This document shows positions 2,883 to 38,183 of a stretch of 38,183 nt of DNA, one piece after another. The DNA is from Candidatus Poribacteria bacterium (GTDB lineage: Bacteria; Poribacteria; WGA-4E; WGA-3G), in assembly GCA_965242965.1 (NCBI GenBank), contig CBDETU010000001.1, forward strand, positions 1 to 38,183. Direction: 5' to 3'. The position numbers and the translations under genes were made by a program. Numbering within the stretch: the first letter of the stretch is position 1; each line of letters starts with the position of its first letter. The notes below the pieces were generated by a model. That model was not told the DNA's origin. It made no database searches and saw nothing but the letters and a program-made list of their open reading frames with translations.

Positions 2883-3001
2883 GATTAGCATCTCCTGCGG
2901 GCTTGAATGCCCTGTGGATTTTGGATTGCATCCCGATACGTTCGGCTACTATTGCTGTAGCAGGGGGTAGGGCAGCAACCCTACCCACGATGCTGATATT
3001 A

Positions 3002-3030
3002 ATTATACCACATTTTAAAGCAAAAGTCAA
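3002..3030 (-). promoter_or_regulatory. sigma70-type promoter with extended -10
   Basis: Minus strand TTGACT-17 bp-TATAAT with TG at the extended -10 position. Confidence 0.85.
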
Positions 3031-3044
3031 ATTAATTCGACCTT

Positions 3045-3145
3045 TGTCTTAAATGCCGTCAGGCTCGGCTGAACGCCGGCATGTTTCCAAAACGCCGAGT
3101 CTAAGCGTATCTCGGTAAAAGGCAGGCGATTTTTTTATTAAGACA
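3045..3145. repeat. TGTCTTAA...TTAAGACA-bounded element, copy 2 (101 bp)
   Basis: Reverse complement aligns along its length with 26844-26942, including the core CGCTTAGACTCGGCGTTT and ATGCCGGCGT. Confidence 0.85.
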
Positions 3146-3162
3146 TGCCGCGGACACGAAAT

Positions 3163-3196
3163 AAAAAAAAGGGCGAGGGACCGTCCCTCGCCCTAC
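3163..3196 (-). terminator. intrinsic terminator formed by a GTAG-type REP-like hairpin
   Basis: Minus strand GTAGGGCGAGGGA-CGG-TCCCTCGCCC followed by T8, just after the scaffold stop codon. Confidence 0.85.
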
Positions 3197-3208
3197 GGTA
3201 GATGCTGG

Positions 3209-3730
3209 CTAGCGCAATCCGCCGAACATGTTGCTCATGCGTTGGGTAGCTTCGGACATGGAGCGTGCGGATTTTTGATTGCCCTGCGCTGTCTGTCCGG
3301 ACCCGCCGCCCTCCACTTGGAGATTGCGCGGTGGTTCGCTTTTCTGGCTGGCTTCGATGCCGGCGATAGCGGCGGATTTGACGGCATCGATGATCATCGC
3401 GGTATCTGCCTTGATGATGCCTTCGATGAAGGATTGTGCTTGCGCGCGGGTGCCTTCGGGCAAGAGTTCGTTGAAGGTTTCCATGTTGTCGCGCATGCTG
3501 TCCTTGAATTCTAACTTGGCGAGTGCGATCTGCTCCGGTGTCATCTCATCATCTTCGCCGGTGGCGGGCTCACCCCGTAGGTTGAGCATATCGGTGAGAA
3601 ACTGCGTATTGGAGCGTTCGTCGGTAGTTTGCGTTTGCGTGCCTGTGCCTGTGCCCGTGCCTGTTTGGCCCGGGTCTGGCGTTTGCCCGGTTTGCTGTGC
3701 GCCCGGGTCCGCGGTCATTTGTTCTTGCAT
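3209..3730 (-). CDS. probable capsid scaffolding protein
   Basis: Directly downstream of portal; low-complexity T/G/Q N-terminus, acidic helical core, short helical C-terminal tail; GGAGG RBS. Confidence 0.6.
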   Translation of the reverse strand: MQEQMTADPGAQQTGQTPDPGQTGTGTGTGTQTQTTDERSNTQFLTDMLNLRGEPATGEDDEMTPEQIALAKLEFKDSMRDNMETFNELLPEGTRAQAQSFIEGIIKADTAMIIDAVKSAAIAGIEASQKSEPPRNLQVEGGGSGQTAQGNQKSARSMSEATQRMSNMFGGLR

Positions 3731-3759
3731 TAAAGCCTCCTGTGTTTGAATTATCGTTT

Positions 3760-5331
3760 TTATCGTTCGGCTCGGAGTGCGGCTTCTTGCCCGGCCAAGA
3801 CTTCCTCGTCTAATGGCGGCATGCCTTGCGGAACGCCGGGTGTGAGGAGATCATCGACTTGCAAGCCGAATCCCCTGTCCAGCCCGAGGAACTCGATAAA
3901 GCGTTCGGGCGAGAGTTGATAGCCGCTGGCTTGTAAGAATTGCACTACCTGAAGTCTGCCGGCGAGTGTATTCGGAATGGAGGTAGAATCTGGCATCACC
4001 AGCTGGTATCCAATTTTCCGTGCGTCTTCCGGGAAACTTTCAGGCAGATCTAGCCCGCCGCGCCAGAAATGCGGTGCGAGGGGCCGGTCTGCAAATTGTT
4101 GAATGAGTGTGAGTTTGATTCTTGCGCGAATCAAGCGGCTCTCATTCATAGAGGTGACGTTATCCGAAACCTGATTAATCGCTGCTTGTTGCAGTGTGTT
4201 TGCGAGTCGTCCGCTGGCGTTACTTGAAGGAGATTCCCCGATAAATACGGGTGAGAGCGAGGGCATCATACCATCCATCACTTCGGCCAGCATTTGGACG
4301 AATTGAAACAGCGCGACGGGGATGTCTTCCGGGGGCAGGTGCTGGATATCGCTCATCTCTTTTCCCTCTTCGAGTTCGATGACGATACCGTGTTCTGCGA
4401 GGATGCGTTCCCTATCGAGTGTGCCGTAGGTTGTCAAAAACCGTCCGACGGAGGTGTTTCGATTAATGAGGATGAGATTCGCGAGGAGCTCATCGTAGAG
4501 TTTTTGTTGCGGCCACATGAACGTCCCATATCCATAGCCCCAAAAATCGTGAGCCTTCCCGTCGCCGAGGAGATTCAGAAAATTCCGCCAAAGCACGAAG
4601 GGATAGGAGGGCCACCAGTAGGGGCTTTCTTGGACGCGGCTAATCTCATCGTTTACCAACGTTGCGAGCACGAGCGGCGTGCGGCACTTTTTGATGTTGA
4701 TACCGCAGTCGTCGGCTTGTTCTTTATCGAGCCACATTTCATCGACGCAGTAGCTAGCGCGTTCCCAATCCGAATCTCGGTGAGTCGGCAATTTATAGCG
4801 TCGTTTGATGTCGCGCCCGAGGTGCCAATTTCGGTGAACGACATAACTTGCATCCGAGAAGTCAGCGTTTGCACATTTTGGGTCTGGTGCAAAAGTCAGT
4901 GGATCGATGGCTTCGCCAGTCACTACCTGTCGTTTGAAATCGTAACGGACTTTGCTAATGGCGTTGCCGCAGACGAGATTATGCGTGACGAGGGTGCGGA
5001 GCCTGTCGCCCTCGTGGTCTACTTCGTCCATCATGTCCATCCAGTTCTGAAGATCTTGGACGAGCATGATATCTTCATCGAGGGAGGCGCGCTTATCGGG
5101 TTTCACTTCGATGCGCGGCATTTGTTCGAGGAAGGCGGGCAGCAAGCGATGAATGCCCTTTTTGATTTTCGGATCGAGGGAGGCGGCGACAAGCGGTCTG
5201 AGGTTACCGATGCGAATATTGCCGCTGGCATACACCTCATTTGCGTAGATGGCGAGTTCGCGTCGCATGCGATTATGCGCTTCTTCGCTTGCCGAGAATG
5301 CGTCGTCGCGTAGTTCTGTAAGTTTCGACAT
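3760..5331 (-). CDS. portal protein (P22-like)
   Basis: About 523 aa from MSKLTEL; motifs LVCGNAISKVRYD, IDPLTFAPDP..DASYVVHR, YPFV, GYGYGTFMWPQQ, ASGRLANTLQQAA; downstream of terL. Confidence 0.85.
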   Translation of the reverse strand: MSKLTELRDDAFSASEEAHNRMRRELAIYANEVYASGNIRIGNLRPLVAASLDPKIKKGIHRLLPAFLEQMPRIEVKPDKRASLDEDIMLVQDLQNWMDMMDEVDHEGDRLRTLVTHNLVCGNAISKVRYDFKRQVVTGEAIDPLTFAPDPKCANADFSDASYVVHRNWHLGRDIKRRYKLPTHRDSDWERASYCVDEMWLDKEQADDCGINIKKCRTPLVLATLVNDEISRVQESPYWWPSYPFVLWRNFLNLLGDGKAHDFWGYGYGTFMWPQQKLYDELLANLILINRNTSVGRFLTTYGTLDRERILAEHGIVIELEEGKEMSDIQHLPPEDIPVALFQFVQMLAEVMDGMMPSLSPVFIGESPSSNASGRLANTLQQAAINQVSDNVTSMNESRLIRARIKLTLIQQFADRPLAPHFWRGGLDLPESFPEDARKIGYQLVMPDSTSIPNTLAGRLQVVQFLQASGYQLSPERFIEFLGLDRGFGLQVDDLLTPGVPQGMPPLDEEVLAGQEAALRAER

Positions 5332-5341
5332 CGTGACGTTC

Positions 5342-5668
5342 CTATCGGCGTTCGCGTATCCGTCGGCGTTCTTCAACGAAGTCCGGTCCGAATGGGCAGG
5401 GCGGCAGCCGTTCGCCAATTACTGAAATCTCGGACAGGAATTCGTAGACGACCTGCTTATCCAAGTCTTGTTCGTGCGGATAGAGTTTCGCGTAAGGCAG
5501 TTCGCATAAGCGTTCGAGTCCACGAACATATACTTCGGGAAACCAGAGGCCGCTGTGACCGGGTTGGCGTTTCCCGTTTGATAGATGGTGTTTCATGTAG
5601 GCGACCCAGCGTTCGTGTTCGGCGTTTGCGAGCTGTTCTAGGAGTGCCTCTTTCTCTTTCTCGTTCAT
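5342..5668 (-). CDS. RyR-repeat-like small protein
   Basis: LANAEHERW...LPYAKLYPHEQDLD matches the RyR-domain pattern LA..EHERW...L.PY..L...E...D. Confidence 0.65.
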   Translation of the reverse strand: MNEKEKEALLEQLANAEHERWVAYMKHHLSNGKRQPGHSGLWFPEVYVRGLERLCELPYAKLYPHEQDLDKQVVYEFLSEISVIGERLPPCPFGPDFVEERRRIRERR

Positions 5669-6024
5669 ATTTTCTCCAGAAGTGCTTCAAAGTCTGCTTC
5701 GGAGAGCGATTCTGCGGTTGCAGCCTTGAGCAGTTTGAAAAGTTTCGGTGGCACGACGAAGGCATGCACGAGGGTTGCGACACCGATGTTCTCGATGCGT
5801 TCGCCAATGGTGCGCATGACGTGATGCGCTTTTTTGGAGTGCGCCACCTTTTCATTAAAAATGCAGAGGAGTTTCTCCGTCGGTTGCAGCTGCCGAGCGT
5901 CTTTCACGACAGCATTGACAAACTTTCGCGGGTTCGTTCCGCCGCTATAGAAATGCACGGGTCCGCTTCCATGTTCTTCAAGGAAATCGAGATGCCGGTC
6001 AAAATCGGTAGTATAGAGATGCAT
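5665..6024 (-). CDS. hypothetical protein, paralog of 6028-6498
   Basis: Aligns by eye with the upstream neighbour (LDFLE..FY; FV..V; AFV....LFK.L); GGAG RBS. Confidence 0.7.
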   Translation of the reverse strand: MHLYTTDFDRHLDFLEEHGSGPVHFYSGGTNPRKFVNAVVKDARQLQPTEKLLCIFNEKVAHSKKAHHVMRTIGERIENIGVATLVHAFVVPPKLFKLLKAATAESLSEADFEALLEKI

Positions 6025-6027
6025 CGG

Positions 6028-6498
6028 TTACTCCGTTGCGGCGAAGTCCCTGTAGAGGGATTCGAGTGCTGCTTTCTCCGGTGCGGCGAATTCCCTTGAG
6101 ATGGCTTGGAGTGCCGCGAGGGTAGGGGGTTCTCGCCGTTTGGGAAATTCATCGTCTTGCGTGCGTTCCGGATAGTGCGCGACGATGGCTTCAAGATTCT
6201 TAAACAGGTTCGATGTTATCACAAACGCGCGGGCGACATTCACGATGCCCAATGCCTCGGCGCGCGCTTGGATCTGCTGTCCGATATCGAGCAGCAGCGA
6301 TGGAATAGGTATCGCCTCTTCATCAAAAAACAGGATGAGTTCCTGCGGCGGGAACAGCCCCCACAGTGTATCGATGACGGTATCGACAAAGGTGGAGATG
6401 CGCGTCTCGAAACGATAGAATAGTATTTTCCCATCGTTATGTTCGAGAAAGTCAAGGACTTTCCGCAGGTTGATAGCATCGTGCAGGGGGATATGCAT
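6028..6498 (-). CDS. hypothetical protein, paralog of 5665-6024
   Basis: Start overlaps the stop of the Tad1-like gene (TGATG); aligns with the downstream neighbour. Confidence 0.7.
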   Translation of the reverse strand: MHIPLHDAINLRKVLDFLEHNDGKILFYRFETRISTFVDTVIDTLWGLFPPQELILFFDEEAIPIPSLLLDIGQQIQARAEALGIVNVARAFVITSNLFKNLEAIVAHYPERTQDDEFPKRREPPTLAALQAISREFAAPEKAALESLYRDFAATE

Positions 6499-6827
6499 CA
6501 GTCTCCCTCGTGTGTGCCTTCCGTTTTCGCTGCAACCCGCCGGGCGGTGCGATTTTCAAGCTCTTCCAGCGCGCGCCGCAGATGCCCAATCGCCGACGCG
6601 TTTTCATCGCATGCGAACTTGCCGTCCTGATAGAACTGGATGCGCCCCATCGCCGCGGCGATGACAGTTTCGACAAAAGCCCCGTTCGGTTCTTGCCGTT
6701 CGTCGCTGTGGATGCGGCCGAGGGGGCCGTTCTGCCATGAGATGGTAATGCCTCTGCCGGAGGTTACCCCGCCTGCGGGATTTCCATTTTCGTCGGTATA
6801 GTGCTCTTCAAAAAAATCTTGTTTCAT
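6498..6827 (-). CDS. tad1: Tad1-family (Thoeris anti-defence sponge) homolog
   Basis: ISWQNG..NGAFVETVIAAAMGRIQFYQDGKFACDENASAIGHLRRALEELENRTARRVAAKTEGT follows the Tad1 pattern I.FQ.G..G....L......RL..FQ.G.F...EN..A..H...AL.....R...R......GT. Confidence 0.75.
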   Translation of the reverse strand: MKQDFFEEHYTDENGNPAGGVTSGRGITISWQNGPLGRIHSDERQEPNGAFVETVIAAAMGRIQFYQDGKFACDENASAIGHLRRALEELENRTARRVAAKTEGTHEGD

Positions 6828-8573
6828 TTAAACTTCCACCTTAAATTCTTCGGCTCGTTGTCGTCGGCGTTGTTGTGTTTCGCGCCGAACGACTTCCAGT
6901 TGATTGACTCGTAGTTGACACGCACCTTCGAGTGCATCCGGTCCGTCGATGAAATCGGCTGTCGGGAATTGTGACAGCTGTTTCATAAATTCGCCGGGTA
7001 GCCCTTCCCGGAAGGCGAGCCAGCCGTTACTAATCGCCGGCTCAAGCGCGGCAATGCGTTCGATTTTGTTGTGGTAACGCGTGAGGAATTCTAGTGGCAC
7101 TGTAGCCTTGCGCTGTTCGCGCAGTGAAGTGAATGTCAGGTTGACATATTCCTTAATGGCCCCGGTCTTGTCAATGAAATCCTCAACGCCAAAGCGAAAG
7201 CGCGGACGTTCGCACCGCACCAGCCCGCTCTGGACATTTTCTAGTATATCAAATGCACTTTTAATTTGCAATGATAATTTGACTCTGTCCAACCATGCAG
7301 AATAGACGTAGCCTTGACAGCCGGCGAGTGACTCTCGGTTGACGGTGCGCCCACCCGGCATGGGCACCCAGACGACACAAACTACGGCGGCGAATGCATT
7401 ATCTACCGAATCCTTCCCGCCTGCCCAATCGAGCAGGAGGGATGCGCCGGCCATCTCTCGCCATTTGATCAGTCTGTTATCGCTTCTTTGAAACCCTTCG
7501 TCTGTCACCTGAAAGGTAATCGCGTTGTCCATGTCGAAAATGGCTTTGCTCGGGTCGCGGGTTTCGTTTTGCAATTCGCGCAACACCGCCCAGTAGCCGA
7601 CATCACAAATCTCCTTGCGGACATCAAGATAGGTTATCATTTCAGGCCAAAGCTCTTTTACGCCCGCGGTCATTTCTTTCTCGTGCTGCTGATAAAAGGC
7701 ATCGGCTCTTGAAACGCGTTCGGTATCGGGACGGGACATGTCTGTCAGGAGCTGTTCCCATTCTTTCCAGAGCGGCTCGGCGGTAGGGTGCCATAAATCA
7801 GCAGGCTCTTCGATCGCCCGGTAGAGTTTCGTCATCCAGCCTGGGCGGCTGCGGAGGAGCGAGGCGGTAGATTCCTCGTGTTTAATGGTGTCGATGTTGA
7901 GGAAATTCGTGCTGCCGTCTAAAGCACCTGCTCGCAGAAAATCGGTGTCGAACCAGTCCTGGTCCTTCTTACGGACATCGGGATTCAGCACCTTTTCTGC
8001 GTCATCTAAATCGTCCGAAATGATGAGACTTGGGCGGTGTTCGCGACTCAGACTGCCGCGAATCTGTCCCCCGCGCCCTTTCGGTTCGAGTTGCACGCCG
8101 TTGGCGGTGACGAGCGACTTGACACCCCAGTGCTTTTTTCCCGTCAGATCGCCGAAGTAGGCGCGGAGTTTCTCATTGCTTTCCAGTTCGGCTTGGATAC
8201 TCTTGACGCGCGATTCTGCCATCTGATACGATTTCGAGACGATGATGATAAAGCGTTCCGGGGTGTAACCCATCGCCTCATCGTAGTCAACATAACAGAT
8301 ACGATGCAACGGTAACATCACGGCCATCAGCGTTGATTTCGCGGAACCGCGCGGGGCGAGGATGTTGACTTTGCTGCCGCGGGTACCGTGGGGTAGGGCG
8401 TGGAACAGCTCGTAATGGTGGCGCGCGAACTCGATGGGCACATAGTGCGGCAAAAAGAATTTCGTAAACAGCGGGAGGTTCCAGTAGGCTTTTGCTTTAA
8501 TCAACTGTTTCGCTTTCGCCGGGTTCGACTTGCTGAGCGTCAGGTAAGTCTGATACGTCGCCGATATCGTCAT
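6828..8573 (-). CDS. terL: terminase large subunit
   Basis: Walker A APRGSAKST, Walker B LIISDDLDD, C-terminal nuclease motif DFIDGPDALEG. Start uncertain (8573 or 8639). Confidence 0.93.
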   Translation of the reverse strand: MTISATYQTYLTLSKSNPAKAKQLIKAKAYWNLPLFTKFFLPHYVPIEFARHHYELFHALPHGTRGSKVNILAPRGSAKSTLMAVMLPLHRICYVDYDEAMGYTPERFIIIVSKSYQMAESRVKSIQAELESNEKLRAYFGDLTGKKHWGVKSLVTANGVQLEPKGRGGQIRGSLSREHRPSLIISDDLDDAEKVLNPDVRKKDQDWFDTDFLRAGALDGSTNFLNIDTIKHEESTASLLRSRPGWMTKLYRAIEEPADLWHPTAEPLWKEWEQLLTDMSRPDTERVSRADAFYQQHEKEMTAGVKELWPEMITYLDVRKEICDVGYWAVLRELQNETRDPSKAIFDMDNAITFQVTDEGFQRSDNRLIKWREMAGASLLLDWAGGKDSVDNAFAAVVCVVWVPMPGGRTVNRESLAGCQGYVYSAWLDRVKLSLQIKSAFDILENVQSGLVRCERPRFRFGVEDFIDKTGAIKEYVNLTFTSLREQRKATVPLEFLTRYHNKIERIAALEPAISNGWLAFREGLPGEFMKQLSQFPTADFIDGPDALEGACQLRVNQLEVVRRETQQRRRQRAEEFKVEV

Positions 8574-9051
8574 CGTCTTCACTTTCGTGAGATACGCGGA
8601 TGCGTGTGCCGGGGAGTAGTCCATGGAGTTTGGCTTCATATTCGTCTTCCTGTCGTTCCGTCTGGATGAGCGCAACAAAGTATTTCGACGCGGCCGCGTC
8701 GTCAGGATGCGTCTGAAGGTGACTTTCAACTCTGTCCATTTCATCGCCTAACCTGTCGAGCCGCAGGGCGCGCCGCCGGTCTTGCGTTTCTTTCAATTGT
8801 CCACTTTGCGCTGCACGTCCGCGTTCAAATGCTTCCCGAAAACGCGGTTCGCAGCGTGCATCGTTCGGGTGGCAGTTCCGCAGGCGACCGCGGAGCGTCT
8901 GGCGATTTTCACGTGTATCGGGCACGCCGAGTTCGCGCAGGAGTTTTGTTATCGCGCGCTTGACACCTGTTCTGTCTGTGCCGAACTGGACAAGCCATGC
9001 AACAAACGTGAAACGATGTCCTTCTTGAACGTTGGGAAATGTTCGGTCCAT
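8497..9051 (-). CDS. probable terminase small subunit
   Basis: 184 aa, helical, acidic tail, immediately upstream of and overlapping terL. Confidence 0.6.
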   Translation of the reverse strand: MDRTFPNVQEGHRFTFVAWLVQFGTDRTGVKRAITKLLRELGVPDTRENRQTLRGRLRNCHPNDARCEPRFREAFERGRAAQSGQLKETQDRRRALRLDRLGDEMDRVESHLQTHPDDAAASKYFVALIQTERQEDEYEAKLHGLLPGTRIRVSHESEDDDDIGDVSDLPDAQQVEPGESETVD

Positions 9052-9055
9052 TGCA

Positions 9056-11176
9056 TTACGGCTGTTCCTGTTGTTGCTTCGCGCGTTCGCCGACGCGGGC
9101 GGGGTAACCGAGCGTCCATTTATGCTTGCGCATTAAGTCGGCGGCACGGTTCATGCTCGGTGCATCGATGCGATATGATTTTCCCCGAATCGTGACTTCA
9201 TGGACGAATCCATCAAGCAGCCAATCGCGTCCCGCTGGCGAATTGATAAATTGCTGATATGCCTTGCCGGTGCCCCATGTGGCGGTGATGGCGAGAACAT
9301 TCAAAACGTCGACGAATTGAATGTCCGGAAGTCCACCACTTCGCAGCAAATAAAGTGCCTCATCAAGCAACGGGATACTCAAGCCGCTTGCGATGGCCTT
9401 CGGGAGAACCTGTTGCAATTTGGCGGTTGGCGAGCCTCGCTTCCATGTCTCGGCGCGTCCAAAGCGTTGTGCGAACTCGGCAGATTCTACGAGCATGGCT
9501 GCGGTATCCTCACCGAACAATGTAATGAGGCGGTTCGGATCTTGGCCACGAATCCGCTTCAATACTGATGTCAACCCTGCCGGGAGTGCCTTGCGCGCCG
9601 CCATATCGTAAATCCGCCCAAGTAGTGCCGGTTCGAGAGCCTCCCAACCATCGGGACCGAGAATAGTTTTGAGGTTGCTCAATTCGGCAGTAGTGATTTT
9701 GCTCTTCTCTTTTAAGAGCTCATCGATGATATTCCCCGGTCGCTCTTGTGACTTCCGCAGGAATGTTGCGGCGACACCTTCATCCAGTTGAATCGTATCA
9801 AGATAGTCTTTTTTGGCAAGACGCACGGTATCGATGAAGTTATCAGGGAACGCTTCGGGATTCAGTGAAATCTGTTCCTCTAACAGCTGATAGAAATCCT
9901 CTGTTAGGGCGTGGTAGAGCCGCGATGCCACCGTGCCTGAGCCTATCGCCGTCATCTCTTTATTTGCGATGGCGAGGTTGATACTATCACGATAGCTCGT
10001 GCGGAGCTGGTCAAAATCGCGCAGCGTCAAATCCTGACGTTGCAATTTTTCAAAGACTTCTTCCAACAAGGCGGTGGCTTTGACGACATCGGGTTTCGGG
10101 AGCAGTTTCGAGGTGCTAGCCTGCAATGCTTTCACTTCGGCGCGCGTATGGGGGAGTAGCTCCATATCGGGAATGCGGACTAACGGCTGATCGAGCGTTT
10201 CACCGATCTTTCCAAACCGTTCTCGAAACTCGCCGCGGAGCCCGAGCTGCCAGTCACTATAATTTTCCAAGGCGCGCGTGCCAGCAATCTCCGGTAGTCG
10301 CACATCGCCCAGTTCGGCGACGTTGGCGGCGGCATCTTCTACGGCCTGCGTGCGTTTCTCCAAAATGGCTTGCTTGGAAGTCTCAAACCGCGCCTCTGCA
10401 CCGGCGATGCCTTCAAACCGTTGCCAGCCCTCGATAGCGGCGGCGCGTTCCACATCCGAAAGGACTGCGACGGGCGTTTCGTCCTTGCCTGCGCCGAACT
10501 GCTCGGAGGCTTCTTCAGGACGCATCGTCGTCGTGATGTCCTGTCCCGTAGTCTCGTCACGCCCAATGGGGACTTCCACTTCGGGATTATAGCCGGCTTT
10601 GTGTTTCTCCATCCAGCCTGCTGTCCCTTTGAGTGCACCGCCAAGTGCCTCGCCGGGGAGGTTCGTCGGATCCGCGAGTTCGGCAGCGCGTTTTGTTGTT
10701 TGCAAGATGCGATGATACTTCGCCGTGCGATTGCTCATCTTCAAGGCGGTGGCACTTCCCCCCGACAGCAGCGGCAGCAGATCGGAAAGGATTGCAAACG
10801 GATCTTCGTGTAGTGTCTTTTTGAATCCTGCCTCAGAACCATAGCGTCCTTTGTAGTCTTCCATAACTGCAGCGATGAGGGGATAGTCGCGTAGGTTGAG
10901 GGTATCTTCTCCGTCAGCTTCAGTGAGATCCTTTGTCAATGCACCGATGTCTTTCGCAAGGGCCACGGCGATGCTCGGCAGTTGTGGAATGCCCTTGACA
11001 GTATCCCACAACCCCTTGCCAAATGAGCGGTAAAGGGTGCCGCTTAAGGGACTGATGCCGCTCAACGCCTCTTTCCAGCTGAGTTCTGTTGCTTCTGCTG
11101 GCTCTTCGGTTGACGCTTCGGTTGACGCTGGCGCGGCGGATGGTTTCTTTTCCCAATTATCCTTCAGATTCGGCAT
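9056..11176 (-). CDS. probable internal virion / DNA ejection protein (large)
   Basis: About 706 aa from MPNLKD with GAGG RBS; helical and Ala/Gly/Leu-rich; third gene of a trio following the adaptor, as for P22 gp7/gp20/gp16. Confidence 0.55.
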   Translation of the reverse strand: MPNLKDNWEKKPSAAPASTEASTEEPAEATELSWKEALSGISPLSGTLYRSFGKGLWDTVKGIPQLPSIAVALAKDIGALTKDLTEADGEDTLNLRDYPLIAAVMEDYKGRYGSEAGFKKTLHEDPFAILSDLLPLLSGGSATALKMSNRTAKYHRILQTTKRAAELADPTNLPGEALGGALKGTAGWMEKHKAGYNPEVEVPIGRDETTGQDITTTMRPEEASEQFGAGKDETPVAVLSDVERAAAIEGWQRFEGIAGAEARFETSKQAILEKRTQAVEDAAANVAELGDVRLPEIAGTRALENYSDWQLGLRGEFRERFGKIGETLDQPLVRIPDMELLPHTRAEVKALQASTSKLLPKPDVVKATALLEEVFEKLQRQDLTLRDFDQLRTSYRDSINLAIANKEMTAIGSGTVASRLYHALTEDFYQLLEEQISLNPEAFPDNFIDTVRLAKKDYLDTIQLDEGVAATFLRKSQERPGNIIDELLKEKSKITTAELSNLKTILGPDGWEALEPALLGRIYDMAARKALPAGLTSVLKRIRGQDPNRLITLFGEDTAAMLVESAEFAQRFGRAETWKRGSPTAKLQQVLPKAIASGLSIPLLDEALYLLRSGGLPDIQFVDVLNVLAITATWGTGKAYQQFINSPAGRDWLLDGFVHEVTIRGKSYRIDAPSMNRAADLMRKHKWTLGYPARVGERAKQQQEQP

Positions 11177-12770
11177 CGGTTTCTTCCTCGTCTTCGGTTT
11201 CTTCCGCGTCTTCGGTTTCCTCCTCGTCTTCGGGGTAGACTTCATCAAGAAGAGTCTCGCGTTCCGCGTCCGACAAGGCATCACCAAAGATGTCACGAAG
11301 ATCTTGGCGTTGCGCCTCGCGGGTATCCCCTGTCGACTTGGCTTCTTGCATCATCGCCACTAATGCCGAGCGCGTCGTCGTCTTACCATCGGTGGCGGTG
11401 TATGTCGGTTCTGCCTCGGAGTCTTCGCCGGGCTCTTCGCCGGACTCTTCGCCAGGCTCTTCGGCTGACGCTGATGCTGTATCATCGCCTGTCGCATCGG
11501 GCATTTCGGAACTGAGTAAAATCTTATCCCACCCCTGTGCGTCGAGTACCTGCTCAGCAAGTTCGGGCGAAGATTGTCCGCTGTAATATGCGTGCTGGCT
11601 GCTCCGCAACGATAATAGGTTTCCGTCAATCGAACCTTCGTTGATATCCTCGTCTTTGAAAATCGCGGGGAGCATGCCCTGCACCCGCGCAAATTCTGAT
11701 TCATTGACGGCAGCACCAGAGATCTGCTTCAGAAACTCAACGAGGTGGCGCGTGATACGCGTCTGAACCTCGGTGGCTTTCTTGCGCTGCTCTGGCGTGA
11801 GCTTGTCAAGCCCGGAAACACTGAGCGTCCAACTTTGCAACAGCGAATTAAAGTCTTTTTTGTTCATCGCCTCTACGGCGACAGAGAACAACCGCCCTGT
11901 CTCGACACCGAGCTCTTTCAACTCACGAAGCCCGGTACGGATATCCACCAGTTCCCGCGCCGCGGTGAGACGCAGCCCCGCCAACTTGGAGGTATCTAAG
12001 TCGTTGAACTTATCGCCAAACAGCCGGAATGCGCCCGCTTGATTGTTGGCAGCGTATTCCGTCGCGATGGCTTGATAGAATCGCTCCGCTTCTTTATCCG
12101 TCAGGGCGAGCCGATTGCCGAGCCGCAACGTCACGCTCCGCACGGCGGCATCGGGTATGCTTTCGAGTGCCTGCTGTGCGGTTTGACTATTCGTGAGGGG
12201 CGCGCTACTGGCTCGGCGCGTTGTAAGTGCCTCTAGCGTTTCGAGTTTACGTTCGAGTTTCTGTGTCTCATCGAGGGGTAGCGTATCAATGATGTTCCAC
12301 AATCCTTCTACGGTAGTGGCCAGTTCGGGGTTCGCGGCGCGGAACGCCTCGGTATCCTGGTCTAATTTGGCTTGCGCGGCAGCAAGCATGCGTTCATTTT
12401 GTGCCTTCGCTTCTTCTAACGCAAGTTCCTGCTTGCCTTTCATCTCCTGAAGTGTCGTCTGGCGCGTTGTCTCTTGTTCTTCGCGCTCGGAGGCTTGTGT
12501 GCCTTTTAATTCTTGCAAGCCGCGCTCATGTGCTTGCTCCTGACCGGCGAGTGCCTCTTGTTGGGCGAGCCGTTCTTTATCGAGTTGCAACATGGCGGCA
12601 TCTTTCAATGCGCCGAGTTCGAGCTTGCGGTTTTCGAGCGCAAGCATGGCTTCATGGCGCGCGCGTTCGTCTTTCGCTTGCCGAACGGCGAGCTTCGCAC
12701 CGCTGACACCGCGCAGGGCGGCCATCAAGCCTTTTGCTGCACCCCGTAGGGCATACATTCCGTTTGACAT
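11157..12770 (-). CDS. probable DNA ejection protein, coiled-coil with acidic tail
   Basis: Start MSNGMY with GGAG RBS; Q/E/A coiled coil; ISGAAVNESEFAR motif resembling podophage ejection proteins. Confidence 0.6.
   Translation of the reverse strand: MSNGMYALRGAAKGLMAALRGVSGAKLAVRQAKDERARHEAMLALENRKLELGALKDAAMLQLDKERLAQQEALAGQEQAHERGLQELKGTQASEREEQETTRQTTLQEMKGKQELALEEAKAQNERMLAAAQAKLDQDTEAFRAANPELATTVEGLWNIIDTLPLDETQKLERKLETLEALTTRRASSAPLTNSQTAQQALESIPDAAVRSVTLRLGNRLALTDKEAERFYQAIATEYAANNQAGAFRLFGDKFNDLDTSKLAGLRLTAARELVDIRTGLRELKELGVETGRLFSVAVEAMNKKDFNSLLQSWTLSVSGLDKLTPEQRKKATEVQTRITRHLVEFLKQISGAAVNESEFARVQGMLPAIFKDEDINEGSIDGNLLSLRSSQHAYYSGQSSPELAEQVLDAQGWDKILLSSEMPDATGDDTASASAEEPGEESGEEPGEDSEAEPTYTATDGKTTTRSALVAMMQEAKSTGDTREAQRQDLRDIFGDALSDAERETLLDEVYPEDEEETEDAEETEDEEETDAESEG
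11176..11233. repeat. 18-bp tandem repeat x3 (coding)
   Basis: TCGGTTTCTTCCTCGTCT and two near-identical units encoding EDEEET/EDAEET. Confidence 0.85.
11422..11464. repeat. 12-bp tandem repeat x3.5 (coding)
   Basis: TCTTCGCCGGGC / TCTTCGCCGGAC / TCTTCGCCAGGC encoding EEPGEESGEEPGED. Confidence 0.8.
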
Positions 12771-18781: not shown

Positions 18782-19252
18782 TTAAACCTCCCCTCTATAC
18801 CATGGTTGTGCGGCTTGCTTGAGTTCGTCCTGGTCTGGCCAGGAGCCGGTGAATCGGTAGGCGCGGTCATCGATATAGACCTTGGCTGCGGGTTTGACGT
18901 TCGGGAACGCGATTCGTTCGATGAGTCGTCCCTTTTCGAGGAGCGGCTGCCAGAGTTCGTTGTCGATGGGTGCTACCCATGCGTCTTTGGCAGGGTTTCC
19001 GCGAAAGTGTTCGTCATGGAGTGCGAGCCATGTCTTCATGGCGGCTCGTCCTTCCGGTTGCGCGCTTCTTGCGCTGAAGATGGCGCACCGGTAGGTTTCG
19101 AGGTAGCTGTAGAGCATGGGTATCGCGCCGGGCACGGGTGCATCGGGGATAACATCGATGCCTTTCCAACCGGAGCGGTAGCTATGAAGAACGCCGTCGA
19201 AATCAAAGCAGAGATCGCAGAAGACGGTGGCGGTTTCTTGTTGCTTGCGCAT
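18782..19252 (-). CDS. HAD-superfamily phosphatase
   Basis: Motif I FDFDGVLH, motif II IFSAR, motifs III/IV KPAAKVYIDDRA. Confidence 0.85.
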   Translation of the reverse strand: MRKQQETATVFCDLCFDFDGVLHSYRSGWKGIDVIPDAPVPGAIPMLYSYLETYRCAIFSARSAQPEGRAAMKTWLALHDEHFRGNPAKDAWVAPIDNELWQPLLEKGRLIERIAFPNVKPAAKVYIDDRAYRFTGSWPDQDELKQAAQPWYRGEV

Positions 19253-25652: not shown

Positions 25653-26588
25653 TCAGGCGATTCCGAACTGCGCTCGCGACATCGAGGCGACTATTACGGC
25701 TCTCTCGAAATCCCGATGAATCGCGCCCGGCATTCGGTGCCTGTCGCAATCCCGTATCGGTTTCCACCGCCCTCCTTTCTTCTGGTCGATCTCGTGGGTG
25801 GCGATGTTTATCCGATACTGCTCGTTGAAACTGTATCGCCAGTCGCCTTTCGCTCGCATCTCGCGCCGTTGTTCCGCCGGTCTGCGCTTGACGGCGCGCT
25901 TTTCAGGCGGCTTGGGATAGAGCTGGAACACGGAGATCTCGTGCGATTTTGATAACCGCTCTAGCATCCCCGCCTCACGCAACTCGGTGATGAGCTCACA
26001 CACCGTCTGCTTGCCAAACCGTGTTAACTTGGATAACGTCTCCATCGTGCAAGGATTCGTCATCCCTGTCTTCCAATCGGAAAAGCGTTTCAGCACCACC
26101 CATAACAGGCAGGCTTTCCAGCTAATCTCGCCGGCGAACATCCGCTCGAACGGGCCGCCGTTCCCGCGCGGCACCGCAAACTTCAGCGGTAAGCCGTCCT
26201 TATCGCGCGGGATATCTGCTTCATCGCACCGATGGTGTGTCAACTCGTAAATGGTGCCTTTCTGTCCGACGTTGACTATCCGCACGAGGGTGTCTTTCAA
26301 TCGAGTGACAGACTGCCGCAGGTATCGCGTAGAGATACCGAGCAGTTCGGCGAACTTCCGGCGCGATGTCCAATGCGTCCGCCCGTTCTGCCAATTGCTC
26401 CGGTAGTTCAGTGTCAATGCGATAACCGCATCGACGGGCTTCAATTCGTGTTCCATCGTCAAGAGTGTCAACGCGCTACCCATGCCGAACGGCACCTGCA
26501 TCGTTGTCTCTTGATACTCAATATGCGGCTTATATGCCACCGATCCAACGGGGCGACCGCGCCGATTCTTCCGCTTTCGACGGTTCAT
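25653..26588 (-). CDS. putative replication initiator with two tandem winged-HTH domains
   Basis: Internal duplication: LTLNYRSNWQNGRTHWTSRRKFAELLGISTRYLRQSVTRL vs VVLKRFSDWKTGMTNPCTMETLSKLTRFGKQTVCELITELREAGML; AAGGGAG RBS before MNRRK; adjacent iteron-like repeats. Confidence 0.7.
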   Translation of the reverse strand: MNRRKRKNRRGRPVGSVAYKPHIEYQETTMQVPFGMGSALTLLTMEHELKPVDAVIALTLNYRSNWQNGRTHWTSRRKFAELLGISTRYLRQSVTRLKDTLVRIVNVGQKGTIYELTHHRCDEADIPRDKDGLPLKFAVPRGNGGPFERMFAGEISWKACLLWVVLKRFSDWKTGMTNPCTMETLSKLTRFGKQTVCELITELREAGMLERLSKSHEISVFQLYPKPPEKRAVKRRPAEQRREMRAKGDWRYSFNEQYRINIATHEIDQKKGGRWKPIRDCDRHRMPGAIHRDFERAVIVASMSRAQFGIA

Positions 26589-26660
26589 TCTAATCTCTCC
26601 CTTCACCGCGAAACTCAATGACCGCGAGGGGTTTTCAGGGCTTCGCAATGAATTTTTAAT

Positions 26661-37655: not shown

Positions 37656-38183
37656 TTATCCGAGAATTCGCAAGACCTGGTCCAATTCGATTTTCCATCG
37701 GGTTTGATGGCCGTTCATGACGGAGCGTTGTGCGGCTGTCAGCGTAGGCGTTCTCCAGCCGAGGAATTCGCGGATAGCGGGAAACCGGAAGGTCGGGATG
37801 TGTCGTCGGGTTAGCCATTGTCTGGCGGTATCATGATTTTTGAGGTTGCACTGTCGTCCTAATGCGCCGTAGGACTGTCCGTTTTGGCTCAGGGCATATT
37901 TCACCAAGGTCTGCTGCCATGTTTTTGTTTCGTCGCTGATGGTCTGCAGGTGTGGCTTCCAGCAGTCGGGCATGATAGGCGTAGGGACTTCGTAAATATC
38001 CAGGTCCAGGAGAAAGCAGTGGAGTGCCCATGCTTCCAGTGTTATCGGCTTAGTCGATTTCGATGAGAGCATTTTCCAGAAATATGCCAAAGATACTTTT
38101 TTTGTGAGGCAGGCTTGCATCGCGGCCGCGGTCCAGCCTGCGTCCCATCTTTTGATGCTGAGCCAGAGATAAAAGGCTTTCAG
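37656..38183 (-). CDS. 3' part of the HNH-multi-HTH gene (open at the right edge)
   Basis: Frame is open from 38183 (LKAFYLWLSIKRWDAGWTAAAM...); XRE-like YALSQNGQSYGALGRQCNLKNHDTARQWLTRRHIP; in frame with 1-969 if the ends are joined. Confidence 0.8.
   Translation of the reverse strand: MKAFYLWLSIKRWDAGWTAAAMQACLTKKVSLAYFWKMLSSKSTKPITLEAWALHCFLLDLDIYEVPTPIMPDCWKPHLQTISDETKTWQQTLVKYALSQNGQSYGALGRQCNLKNHDTARQWLTRRHIPTFRFPAIREFLGWRTPTLTAAQRSVMNGHQTRWKIELDQVLRILG

Follow-up and report, generated by a model that had tools for sequence, protein, structure and literature searches.

Two described families of phage proteins are closest to the genes reported here. RyDEPs, which are phage proteins with a RyR domain, cleave or sequester the 2'/3' cyclic ADP-ribose (2'/3'cADPR) signals of Thoeris systems; H75 and D117 of RyDEP form a catalytic dyad and W78 braces the adenine (May 2026 preprint, PMC13232231, accessible part of the text). 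In Tad1, residues F82, N92, R109 and R113 of CbTad1 make up the pocket for gcADPR and 2'3'-cGAMP, R90 and T97 (R88 and T95 in CmTad1) form the cyclic-trinucleotide site and also a hexamer contact, and a minority of homologs carry substitutions at the cyclic-trinucleotide residues (PMC10680739, likewise from its accessible part). Relatives of both families are encoded in the stretch of DNA analysed here, a contig of 38,183 bp from a Candidatus Poribacteria bacterium (CBDETU010000001.1), referred to as the window. They belong to a block of four small genes, g1 to g4, which lie between the genes for the large terminase (terL) and the portal protein. The explanation that we prefer, and hold to be probable, is that g1-g4 are an accessory counter-defence cassette in the packaging operon of a phage-like replicon, circular and 38 kb in size. 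In this cassette g1 would act as a sponge, g4 would sequester or hydrolyse the signal, and g2 and g3 may join them.

Gene g1 (6498-6827, minus strand) encodes 109 residues. A sequence-only reading of the window had taken it for a Tad1 homolog, and this holds: PDB chains of Tad1, Tad1 of Bacillus phage SBSphiJ7 and the PHROG family phrog_2428 (E 1.8e-16) all match. When PDB sequences were searched with phmmer, five chains named "Thoeris anti-defense 1" and 7UAV were retrieved at E 1.2e-4 to 4.6e-3 (8kbb, which is CmTad1, E 1.2e-4; 7uav, which is CbTad1, E 3.5e-3). Tblastn against phage records gave matches in 177 of them, the best being Vibrio phages (47.9% identity, E 2e-18). Annotated Tad1 proteins were matched in SBSphiJ7 (38.8% identity, residues 23-107 of 109, E 2e-9) and in SPG24 (E 5e-9). 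Residues Y66, N76, R93 and R97 of g1 align with F82, N92, R109 and R113 of CbTad1 in ungapped HMMER alignments; numbering of the PDB chain is one below that of the paper, an offset deduced from residue identities. N76, R93 and R97 are moreover invariant in a three-way alignment with SBSphiJ7 Tad1 and the Vibrio phage homolog. These alignments make g1 a new Tad1 protein, for which a narrower range of ligands is predicted. It would be a sponge of the Tad1 type, predicted to hold TIR-made cADPR isomers, and possibly cyclic dinucleotides, in the pocket at the dimer interface, and no cyclic trinucleotides.

Among PDB sequences, the best match of g1 is a protein other than Tad1. Residues 48-108 (window 6498-6680) match gp184 (8y6v_I, E 7.3e-6), namely the C-terminal 60 residues of this 230-residue chain, and this segment of g1 is also what phrog_22140 and genes of Pseudomonas jumbo phages match. 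The C-terminal helices of Tad1 therefore form a module that larger phage proteins contain as well. In the host phylum, a Tad1 homolog was detected in one of 175 other genomes, where it is chromosomal and lies among ordinary metabolic genes (L056:1492-2211; G045:C1:4059789-4060508). This homolog, 61% identical to g1, makes up the N-terminal 107 residues of a 239-residue frame, whose remaining C-terminal ~130 residues match no Pfam family.

Gene g4 (5342-5668, minus strand; 108 residues) had been called RyR-like. Pfam does not see this relationship, but profile-profile comparison does. Five close relatives of g4 were retrieved from metagenomes, and a seventh family member is the C-terminal domain of a 209-residue protein in a related genome (E 4e-12 with the family hidden Markov model, HMM); the family occurs in one of the 175 other genomes of the phylum. 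Searches of GenBank phages with g4, of IMG/VR with the g4 pair, of contigs of GTDB genomes and JGI metagenomes with the family, and of PDB sequences with g4 alone and with the family profile retrieved nothing.

For the comparison, a canonical RyR alignment was constructed from six PF02026 matches (five at E <= 1e-34, one at 1.5e-14). Since its wider version matches RyR1-3 in PDB at E 1e-77, it can be taken to model the RyR domain. With six g4 sequences, hhalign gave a probability of 39% (E 3.2e-4) against this canonical set, 92% (E 7.2e-7) when short intermediates were added to it and 50% (E 1.7e-4) against a set with phage members. With all seven sequences, the values were 91.7% (E 7.8e-7) against canonical RyR only and 90.4% (E 1.4e-6) against the set with phage members, which includes a RyDEP ortholog. 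As controls, the unrelated g2/g3 profile reached 0.15% and 0.06%, the reversed g4 profile 0.18%, and 150 column shuffles a mean score of 10.6 (standard deviation 2.3, maximum 22.8) against 38.7 observed. The register was identical in every comparison. It places H18, W21 and D70 of g4, invariant in all seven family sequences, on H75, W78 and D117 of RyDEP.

This register was checked with gp81 of Mycobacterium phage Baudelaire, a protein that scores 31.5 bits with PF02026, above the cut-off. Its gene lies between those of a phosphoribosyl pyrophosphate transferase and a nicotinate ribosyltransferase, and by this gene order the position is the NARP1-type context of the RyDEP preprint. In the alignment numbering of gp81, H75 and W78 are invariant and D117 is nearly so. 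On these profile comparisons, g4 is best regarded as a variant, and a very divergent one, of the evasion proteins with a RyR domain that were recently described. Being a minimal RyR/R12-domain protein, it would bind ADP-ribose (ADPR)-derived signals of Thoeris and either sequester or hydrolyse them.

The 209-residue protein mentioned above (L039:9897-10526, minus strand; G148:C2) has a cytidylyltransferase-like N-terminus, as indicated by Pfam and PDB matches, fused to the g4-like domain. The closest PDB match of the N-terminus is glycerol-3-phosphate cytidylyltransferase. The gene lies among epimerase genes, near a Cas_APE2256 (CARF-type) gene.

Between g1 and g4 are g2 (6028-6498; 156 residues) and g3 (5665-6024; 119 residues), both on the minus strand. 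Their paralogy, noticed in the sequence-only reading, is borne out by BLASTP (E 6e-13, 33% identity over 94 residues). The family domain has ~105 residues; g3 consists of this core domain only and g2 adds a C-terminal tail of ~45 residues. Relatives are rare. One close homolog of g2 was found among 5.8 billion clusters, and a search of 1.84 billion representatives gave five hits, including g2 itself and one spurious protein (P0006, a 968-residue repeat protein in which 19 profile positions were matched 16 times over). No match was obtained for g2 in GenBank phages and IMG/VR, nor for g3 in PLSDB plasmids. An alignment of 11 family sequences reveals a conserved N-terminal L-D-x-L-E motif, a glycine and several aromatic or aliphatic positions. 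Neither g2 nor g3 matched Pfam, NCBIfam or PADLOC models; a single weak match was obtained in PHROG (E 0.0038), the best E in the PDB profile search was 0.25, and Atlas scores did not exceed 0.83. A TIR-like domain was considered and rejected (hhalign probability of 0.41% against short TIR domains). The AF2 model of g2 (3-row alignment) has alternating helices and strands, and its best match among 48,161 chains in VIA-align (Z 6.2) belongs to generic Rossmann-like matches of a model with a predicted local distance difference test (pLDDT) value of 55.9.

We wondered where the relatives of g2 and g3 reside. They were detected in eight of the 175 other genomes of the phylum. The loci examined come from contigs of 129-145 kb and have genes of a Rep3 initiator, a DnaB-like helicase, ParA and helix-turn-helix (HTH) proteins within a few kb; two of these plasmid contigs carry a second, more distant g2/3-like copy ~7 kb off. 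In L035 and L038 the same order recurs: HTH protein, small open reading frames (ORFs), g2/3-like gene, protein of ~850 residues. The window itself encodes a replication-initiation-like protein (25653-26648, minus strand). Over 296 residues it shares 37.5% identity with a counterpart from a related genome (L038:6928-7923), which is encoded on a Rep3 plasmid contig of 129 kb, 2 kb from a g2/3-like gene. These neighbourhoods favour an alternative in which g1 and g4 alone would serve counter-defence, g2 and g3 being passengers from a plasmid or phage module for establishment, replication or regulation. Two points speak against it. On either side the pair adjoins, through overlapping stops and starts, a gene whose product is predicted to bind signals, and no DNA-binding or enzymatic motif was detected in g2 or g3 (Pfam, NCBIfam, PDB profile, Atlas, hhalign). 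We regard the passenger alternative as a serious competitor, though clearly the less likely one, to a cassette in which the duplicated pair possibly acts together with g1 and g4.

The sequence-only reading had proposed all three neighbours of g1 as candidate new inhibitors. For g4, a tie to neutralisation of immune signals is indeed suggested by the RyR relationship, but the kind of candidate that it represents is not entirely new. For g2 and g3, nothing but their position between g1 and g4 connects them with anti-defence, and the claim that they are inhibitors finds no other backing. In short, g1 and g4 are of known kinds, while g2 and g3 are candidates that may represent a new, unnamed family of inhibitors or sponges.

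Relatives of g4 outside phages were then sought. The family member P0012 was used as query for tblastn against PLSDB, which gave matches in 16 plasmid records (28-35% identity to P0012), nine of which were inspected. In eight of the nine, the small RyR-like gene (89-135 residues) adjoins a gene annotated as "caspase family protein", being directly downstream of it in seven and upstream in one; the ninth record, from Sphingobium cloacae, has neither a caspase nor a TIR neighbour. The eight genes are L044:6971-7246, L046:3962-4270, L047:3962-4240, L048:3968-4252, L049:3962-4255, L052:2471-2740, L053:2471-2770 and L054:2360-2767. Seven of these eight loci have one or two annotated TIR genes as neighbours, and in the last one a neighbouring gene of 372 nt is annotated as hypothetical. 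In four of the inspected plasmids, a metallophosphoesterase gene follows. Pfam confirmed ThsB_TIR and Peptidase_C14 in both TIR-caspase pairs tested. All six of the small proteins tested score 60-72 bits with the HMM of the g4 family, and four of the six score 18-22 bits with PF02026, below the cut-off.

A short TIR protein with a caspase-like protease is the layout of type IV Thoeris, whose signal is N7-cADPR according to the accessible text of its preprint. There, type IV Thoeris is a two-gene operon, with no mention of a third or accessory gene. RyR is absent from the systematic TIR preprint, and type IV Thoeris and N7-cADPR are absent from the RyDEP preprint (PMC13232231), which is the only report that we found on RyR/R12 domains together with Thoeris. 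In the accessible parts of these three preprints, we did not find a built-in component of Thoeris that quenches the signal.

A similar association was observed in four genomes of the host's order. Short RyR-like ORFs (L013:1444-1698, minus strand; L014:1412-1681, plus strand; L015:1444-1698, minus strand; L016:1474-1764, minus strand) score 23-25 bits with PF02026, below the cut-off. All three loci scanned for this neighbour have a gene of an 8xMP (PF24838) membrane protein overlapping or abutting the ORF; TIR genes lie beside two loci and a nucleoside deoxyribosyltransferase-like gene at a third. That RyR-like genes recur beside TIR-caspase and TIR-8xMP genes suggests that Thoeris systems carry a signal-quenching component of their own. 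Ring nucleases of type III CRISPR would be a parallel to such a quencher. We further put forward, as a tentative idea, that g4 belongs to an unrecognised and strongly divergent RyR/R12 branch, whose cellular members would be third components built into TIR operons (type IV Thoeris with TIR and caspase, and TIR-8xMP systems), where they would buffer or switch off an ADPR-derived signal. The phage would have captured one of them to quench this signal, possibly N7-cADPR or another one beyond the reach of Tad1. Tad1 would cover 2'/3'cADPR and cyclic dinucleotides, and g2/g3 would be a new inhibitor or sponge family.

The same plasmid loci can be turned into another explanation for g4. Position inside TIR-caspase operons, found for the nearest named relatives in eight of the nine records inspected, could reflect a protein partner, so that g4 would copy an accessory protein of host Thoeris and act as a regulator or decoy on the TIR protein or the effector rather than on a small molecule; the unconserved equivalent of RyDEP H100 agrees with this. 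We consider it unlikely, because exactly those H, W and D residues that contact the ligand or catalyse in RyDEP are the invariant ones of the g4 family, and the fusion of a g4-like domain to a nucleotidyltransferase-like domain fits nucleotide binding.

Signalling defences are encoded in the host chromosome. At G000:C1:835761-837319 (L069:1477-3035), a ThsB_TIR gene (E 2.3e-10) overlaps a ThsA_Macro gene (E 4.8e-43), and a gene of a trypsin-like/TPR protein precedes them; this pair is Macro-type Thoeris. A further locus (G000:C1:2443746-2452640; L043:747-9641) encodes SspC, SspD, an HNH protein, a CD-NTase, a patatin-like phospholipase effector and a second CD-NTase, that is, CBASS with two cyclases (matches at E 1e-105 to 1e-116). 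The chromosome also has two TIR-TPR proteins, one of them beside ADP-ribosylglycohydrolase and GmrSD genes, and one 8xMP gene. Judged by these Thoeris, CBASS and TIR genes, signalling immunity is present in the host. Type I Thoeris was looked for and rejected, with no match to SIR2_2 and none to PADLOC model PDLC00419. Ten Peptidase_C14 matches all fall in frames of 475-1407 residues and so are not of the short type IV kind. One of the TIR-TPR genes (G000:C1:4905480-4911512; L005:4975-11007) encodes a TaqI_C-like C-terminal region and lies between genes of an SMC-like AAA ATPase and the ADP-ribosylglycohydrolase, next to GmrSD.

The arrangement of the block agrees with what the sequence-only reading had described: four small genes at 5342-6827, all on the minus strand, between terL and portal. 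The terL gene (6828-8744, minus strand) matches phrog_38 (E 8.2e-59) and, in tblastn, terminases of Mu-like Pseudomonas phages (28%, E 8e-40); no match was obtained in IMG/VR. The portal gene (3760-5331, minus strand) starts with ATG at 5331 (MSKL) and matches PF16510 P22_portal (E 1.2e-10) and phrog_156 (E 1.8e-13). Junctions are tight. The TAA of terL is directly followed by the ATG of g1 in the same frame (0 nt), g1 and g2 overlap by 1 nt (TGATG), g2 and g3 are 3 nt apart (TAA-CCG-ATG), g3 and g4 overlap by 4 nt (ATGA), and 10 nt separate the TAG of g4 from the portal ATG. The genes had been described as translationally coupled; tight or overlapping junctions agree with this, but the coupling itself is deduced from spacing. 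Read-through of one stop at 6825-6830 would fuse terL to Tad1; the shared frame of this stop and start is probably due to chance, which is one in three.

To describe transcription of the block, promoter-like and terminator-like patterns were scanned over 3000-11500 and compared with shuffles. There is no excess of either (7 promoter-like sites against 4.5 +/- 1.9; 14 terminator-like sites against 11.1 +/- 3.3), and the scan found no minus-strand promoter-like site inside 5342-6827. Past the portal gene lie an ORF (3209-3730) and, at 3170-3194 of the minus strand, the strongest terminator-like hairpin of the region, with 11 pairs (8 of them G-C) followed by a run of T, a pattern match that likely ends the transcription unit. 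Co-transcription from terL through this hairpin is plausible. Co-expression with terL and portal, as claimed in the sequence-only reading, is no more than consistent with the lack of internal sites above chance.

Conservation of the block was also considered. Loci that combine two of the families g1, g2/g3 and g4 were absent among the phylum loci examined. Because the cassette is not conserved as a unit in the phylum, g1-g4 fit an accessory, mosaic block rather than core packaging genes. That terL and portal are usually adjacent, as had been stated, agrees with Pseudomonas phage Frizzy, the single relative inspected (28% terL identity, among the best terL matches), in which 12 nt separate the two genes. 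The genes g1-g4 are extremely rare and absent between terL and portal of Frizzy, so conserved core packaging factors, named in the sequence-only reading as the refuting case, are an unlikely identity for them. A related explanation, that g1-g4 are accessory factors of structure or packaging (e.g. head completion or terminase-portal adaptors) with incidental similarity to Tad1 and RyR, could appeal to their place inside the packaging operon without an excess of internal sites and to the shorter N-terminus of g1 compared with SBSphiJ7 Tad1, but we judge it very improbable, given that Tad1 similarity spans nearly all of g1 with the ligand pocket kept, that homologs are almost lacking (none in phage records for g2 or g4), that terL and portal are adjacent in Frizzy, and that g4 relatives occur in plasmid TIR-caspase operons and not in virion modules.

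Several observations weigh against g1-g4 as a counter-defence cassette. None of the four genes is matched by any Pfam, NCBIfam or PADLOC model; g4 in particular has no Pfam hit at E <= 0.1 and none in NCBIfam or PADLOC, and a whole-genome scan with PF02026 (gathering score 27.4 bits) gave no match in the window, nor anywhere else in the host genome. The phosphate-coordinating H100 of RyDEP corresponds to R53 of g4, in a variable column (R/R/H/N/T/E). Among RyDEP homologs, six of eight bind 2'/3'cADPR, two do not, and the founder alone cleaves it (PMC13232231, accessible part); conserved residues do not predict the activity of these homologs, and so it cannot be read from the g4 sequence whether g4 would be a sponge or an enzyme. 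The AF2 model of g4 (2-row alignment) is poor and helical, with pLDDT 57.1, and that of g2 has 55.9. VIA-align over the 48,161 chains gave generic helical matches for the g4 model (best Z 6.7) with no RyR chain among the best 50, and no PDB match of this model in Foldseek reached E <= 0.001; the putative ryanodine receptor chain of Bacteroides at rank 8 there has E 8 and was rejected as evidence.

For g1, both cyclic-trinucleotide residues are gone, as D74 and G81 replace R90 and T97 of CbTad1. In the same two columns, SBSphiJ7 Tad1 has R and T, the Vibrio homolog A and H, and the homolog in the other genome of the phylum P and E. Because this pair is replaced, g1 is predicted not to bind cA3, and it may form an oligomer other than the hexamer described for Tad1. 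By sequence, the substitutions narrow the predicted range of ligands and are no argument against membership in Tad1. That only other Tad1 homolog of the phylum stands without relatives of g2-g4. Likewise, in the loci examined, homologs of g2/g3 on Rep3 plasmids are not beside Tad1 or g4 homologs, and g2 and g3 themselves are without functional signal. Thoeris found in the host is of the Macro type, whose signal is His-ADPR as given in the accessible text of its source, and we found no report, in the accessible parts of the literature, of Tad1 or RyDEP binding His-ADPR. Finally, sponge genes are usually expressed early; g1-g4 stand in a late-type operon.

The element that carries the block is the whole second contig of a two-contig genome (94.7% complete), with GC content of 54.9% against 54.2% in the chromosome. 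All its long ORFs are on the minus strand. An ORF running off base 1 (1029 nt) and one running in from base 38183 (528 nt) join in frame, and because of this join the molecule fits a circular or circularly permuted one. PHROG matches in the window comprise terL, portal, an endolysin-type lysozyme, an internal virion protein, a structural protein and the replication-initiation-like protein. The similarity of the latter to a plasmid protein and the ORF that continues in frame from one contig end to the other hint that the element may be a phage-plasmid. A further gene (18782-19252, minus strand) encodes a phosphoheptose-isomerase-like protein (phrog_1238, E 6.9e-8; phrog_23773, E 2.5e-19), possibly a sugar-nucleotide auxiliary gene.

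If the cassette is real, one short operon holds two unrelated proteins against TIR signals together with two proteins of no recognised family, which makes it a compact place to seek new inhibitors. It would then also be a case of anti-signalling genes housed within a late operon for packaging, in a phage whose host lineage is uncultured. Of the side results, the recurrent association of small RyR-like genes with TIR operons is the most interesting.

Compared with described Tad1 proteins, g1 is homologous over nearly its whole length and retains both the two helices of the C-terminal region and the residues of the gcADPR/cyclic-dinucleotide pocket. It differs in a shorter N-terminus (109 residues in total against 142 for SBSphiJ7 Tad1), in an 8-residue insertion ahead of the first long helix and in its place in a packaging operon, directly after terL. 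With RyDEP, g4 shares profile homology across ~70 columns of the 91-position PF02026 domain, an H-x-x-W and a downstream Y..L....D motif in register, and the character of a small stand-alone phage protein beside another anti-Thoeris gene. On the other hand, g4 has a longer insert in place of the G-W-x-Y-G loop, possesses an extra conserved C-terminal L-P-x-C-P-F/Y-G-P motif, stays below every Pfam threshold and is outside any NARP1 operon.

The closest named relatives of g4 are the RyR-like proteins of TIR-caspase operons on alphaproteobacterial and actinobacterial plasmids, which are of the same length class and share the invariant H, W and D. In contrast to g4, they are encoded by the host or plasmid within a defence operon, most of those tested have a detectable PF02026 score where g4 has none, and they are without the C-terminal Cys-Pro motif. 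As a whole, the block differs from anti-defence clusters of phages and of plasmid leading regions in its position, which is the terL-portal interval of a late-type operon and not an early region, and in that half of it (g2/g3) is without a recognised family. It resembles them in its dense packing of several small genes that evolve fast and come from different families, at least two of them predicted to be aimed at signalling immunity.

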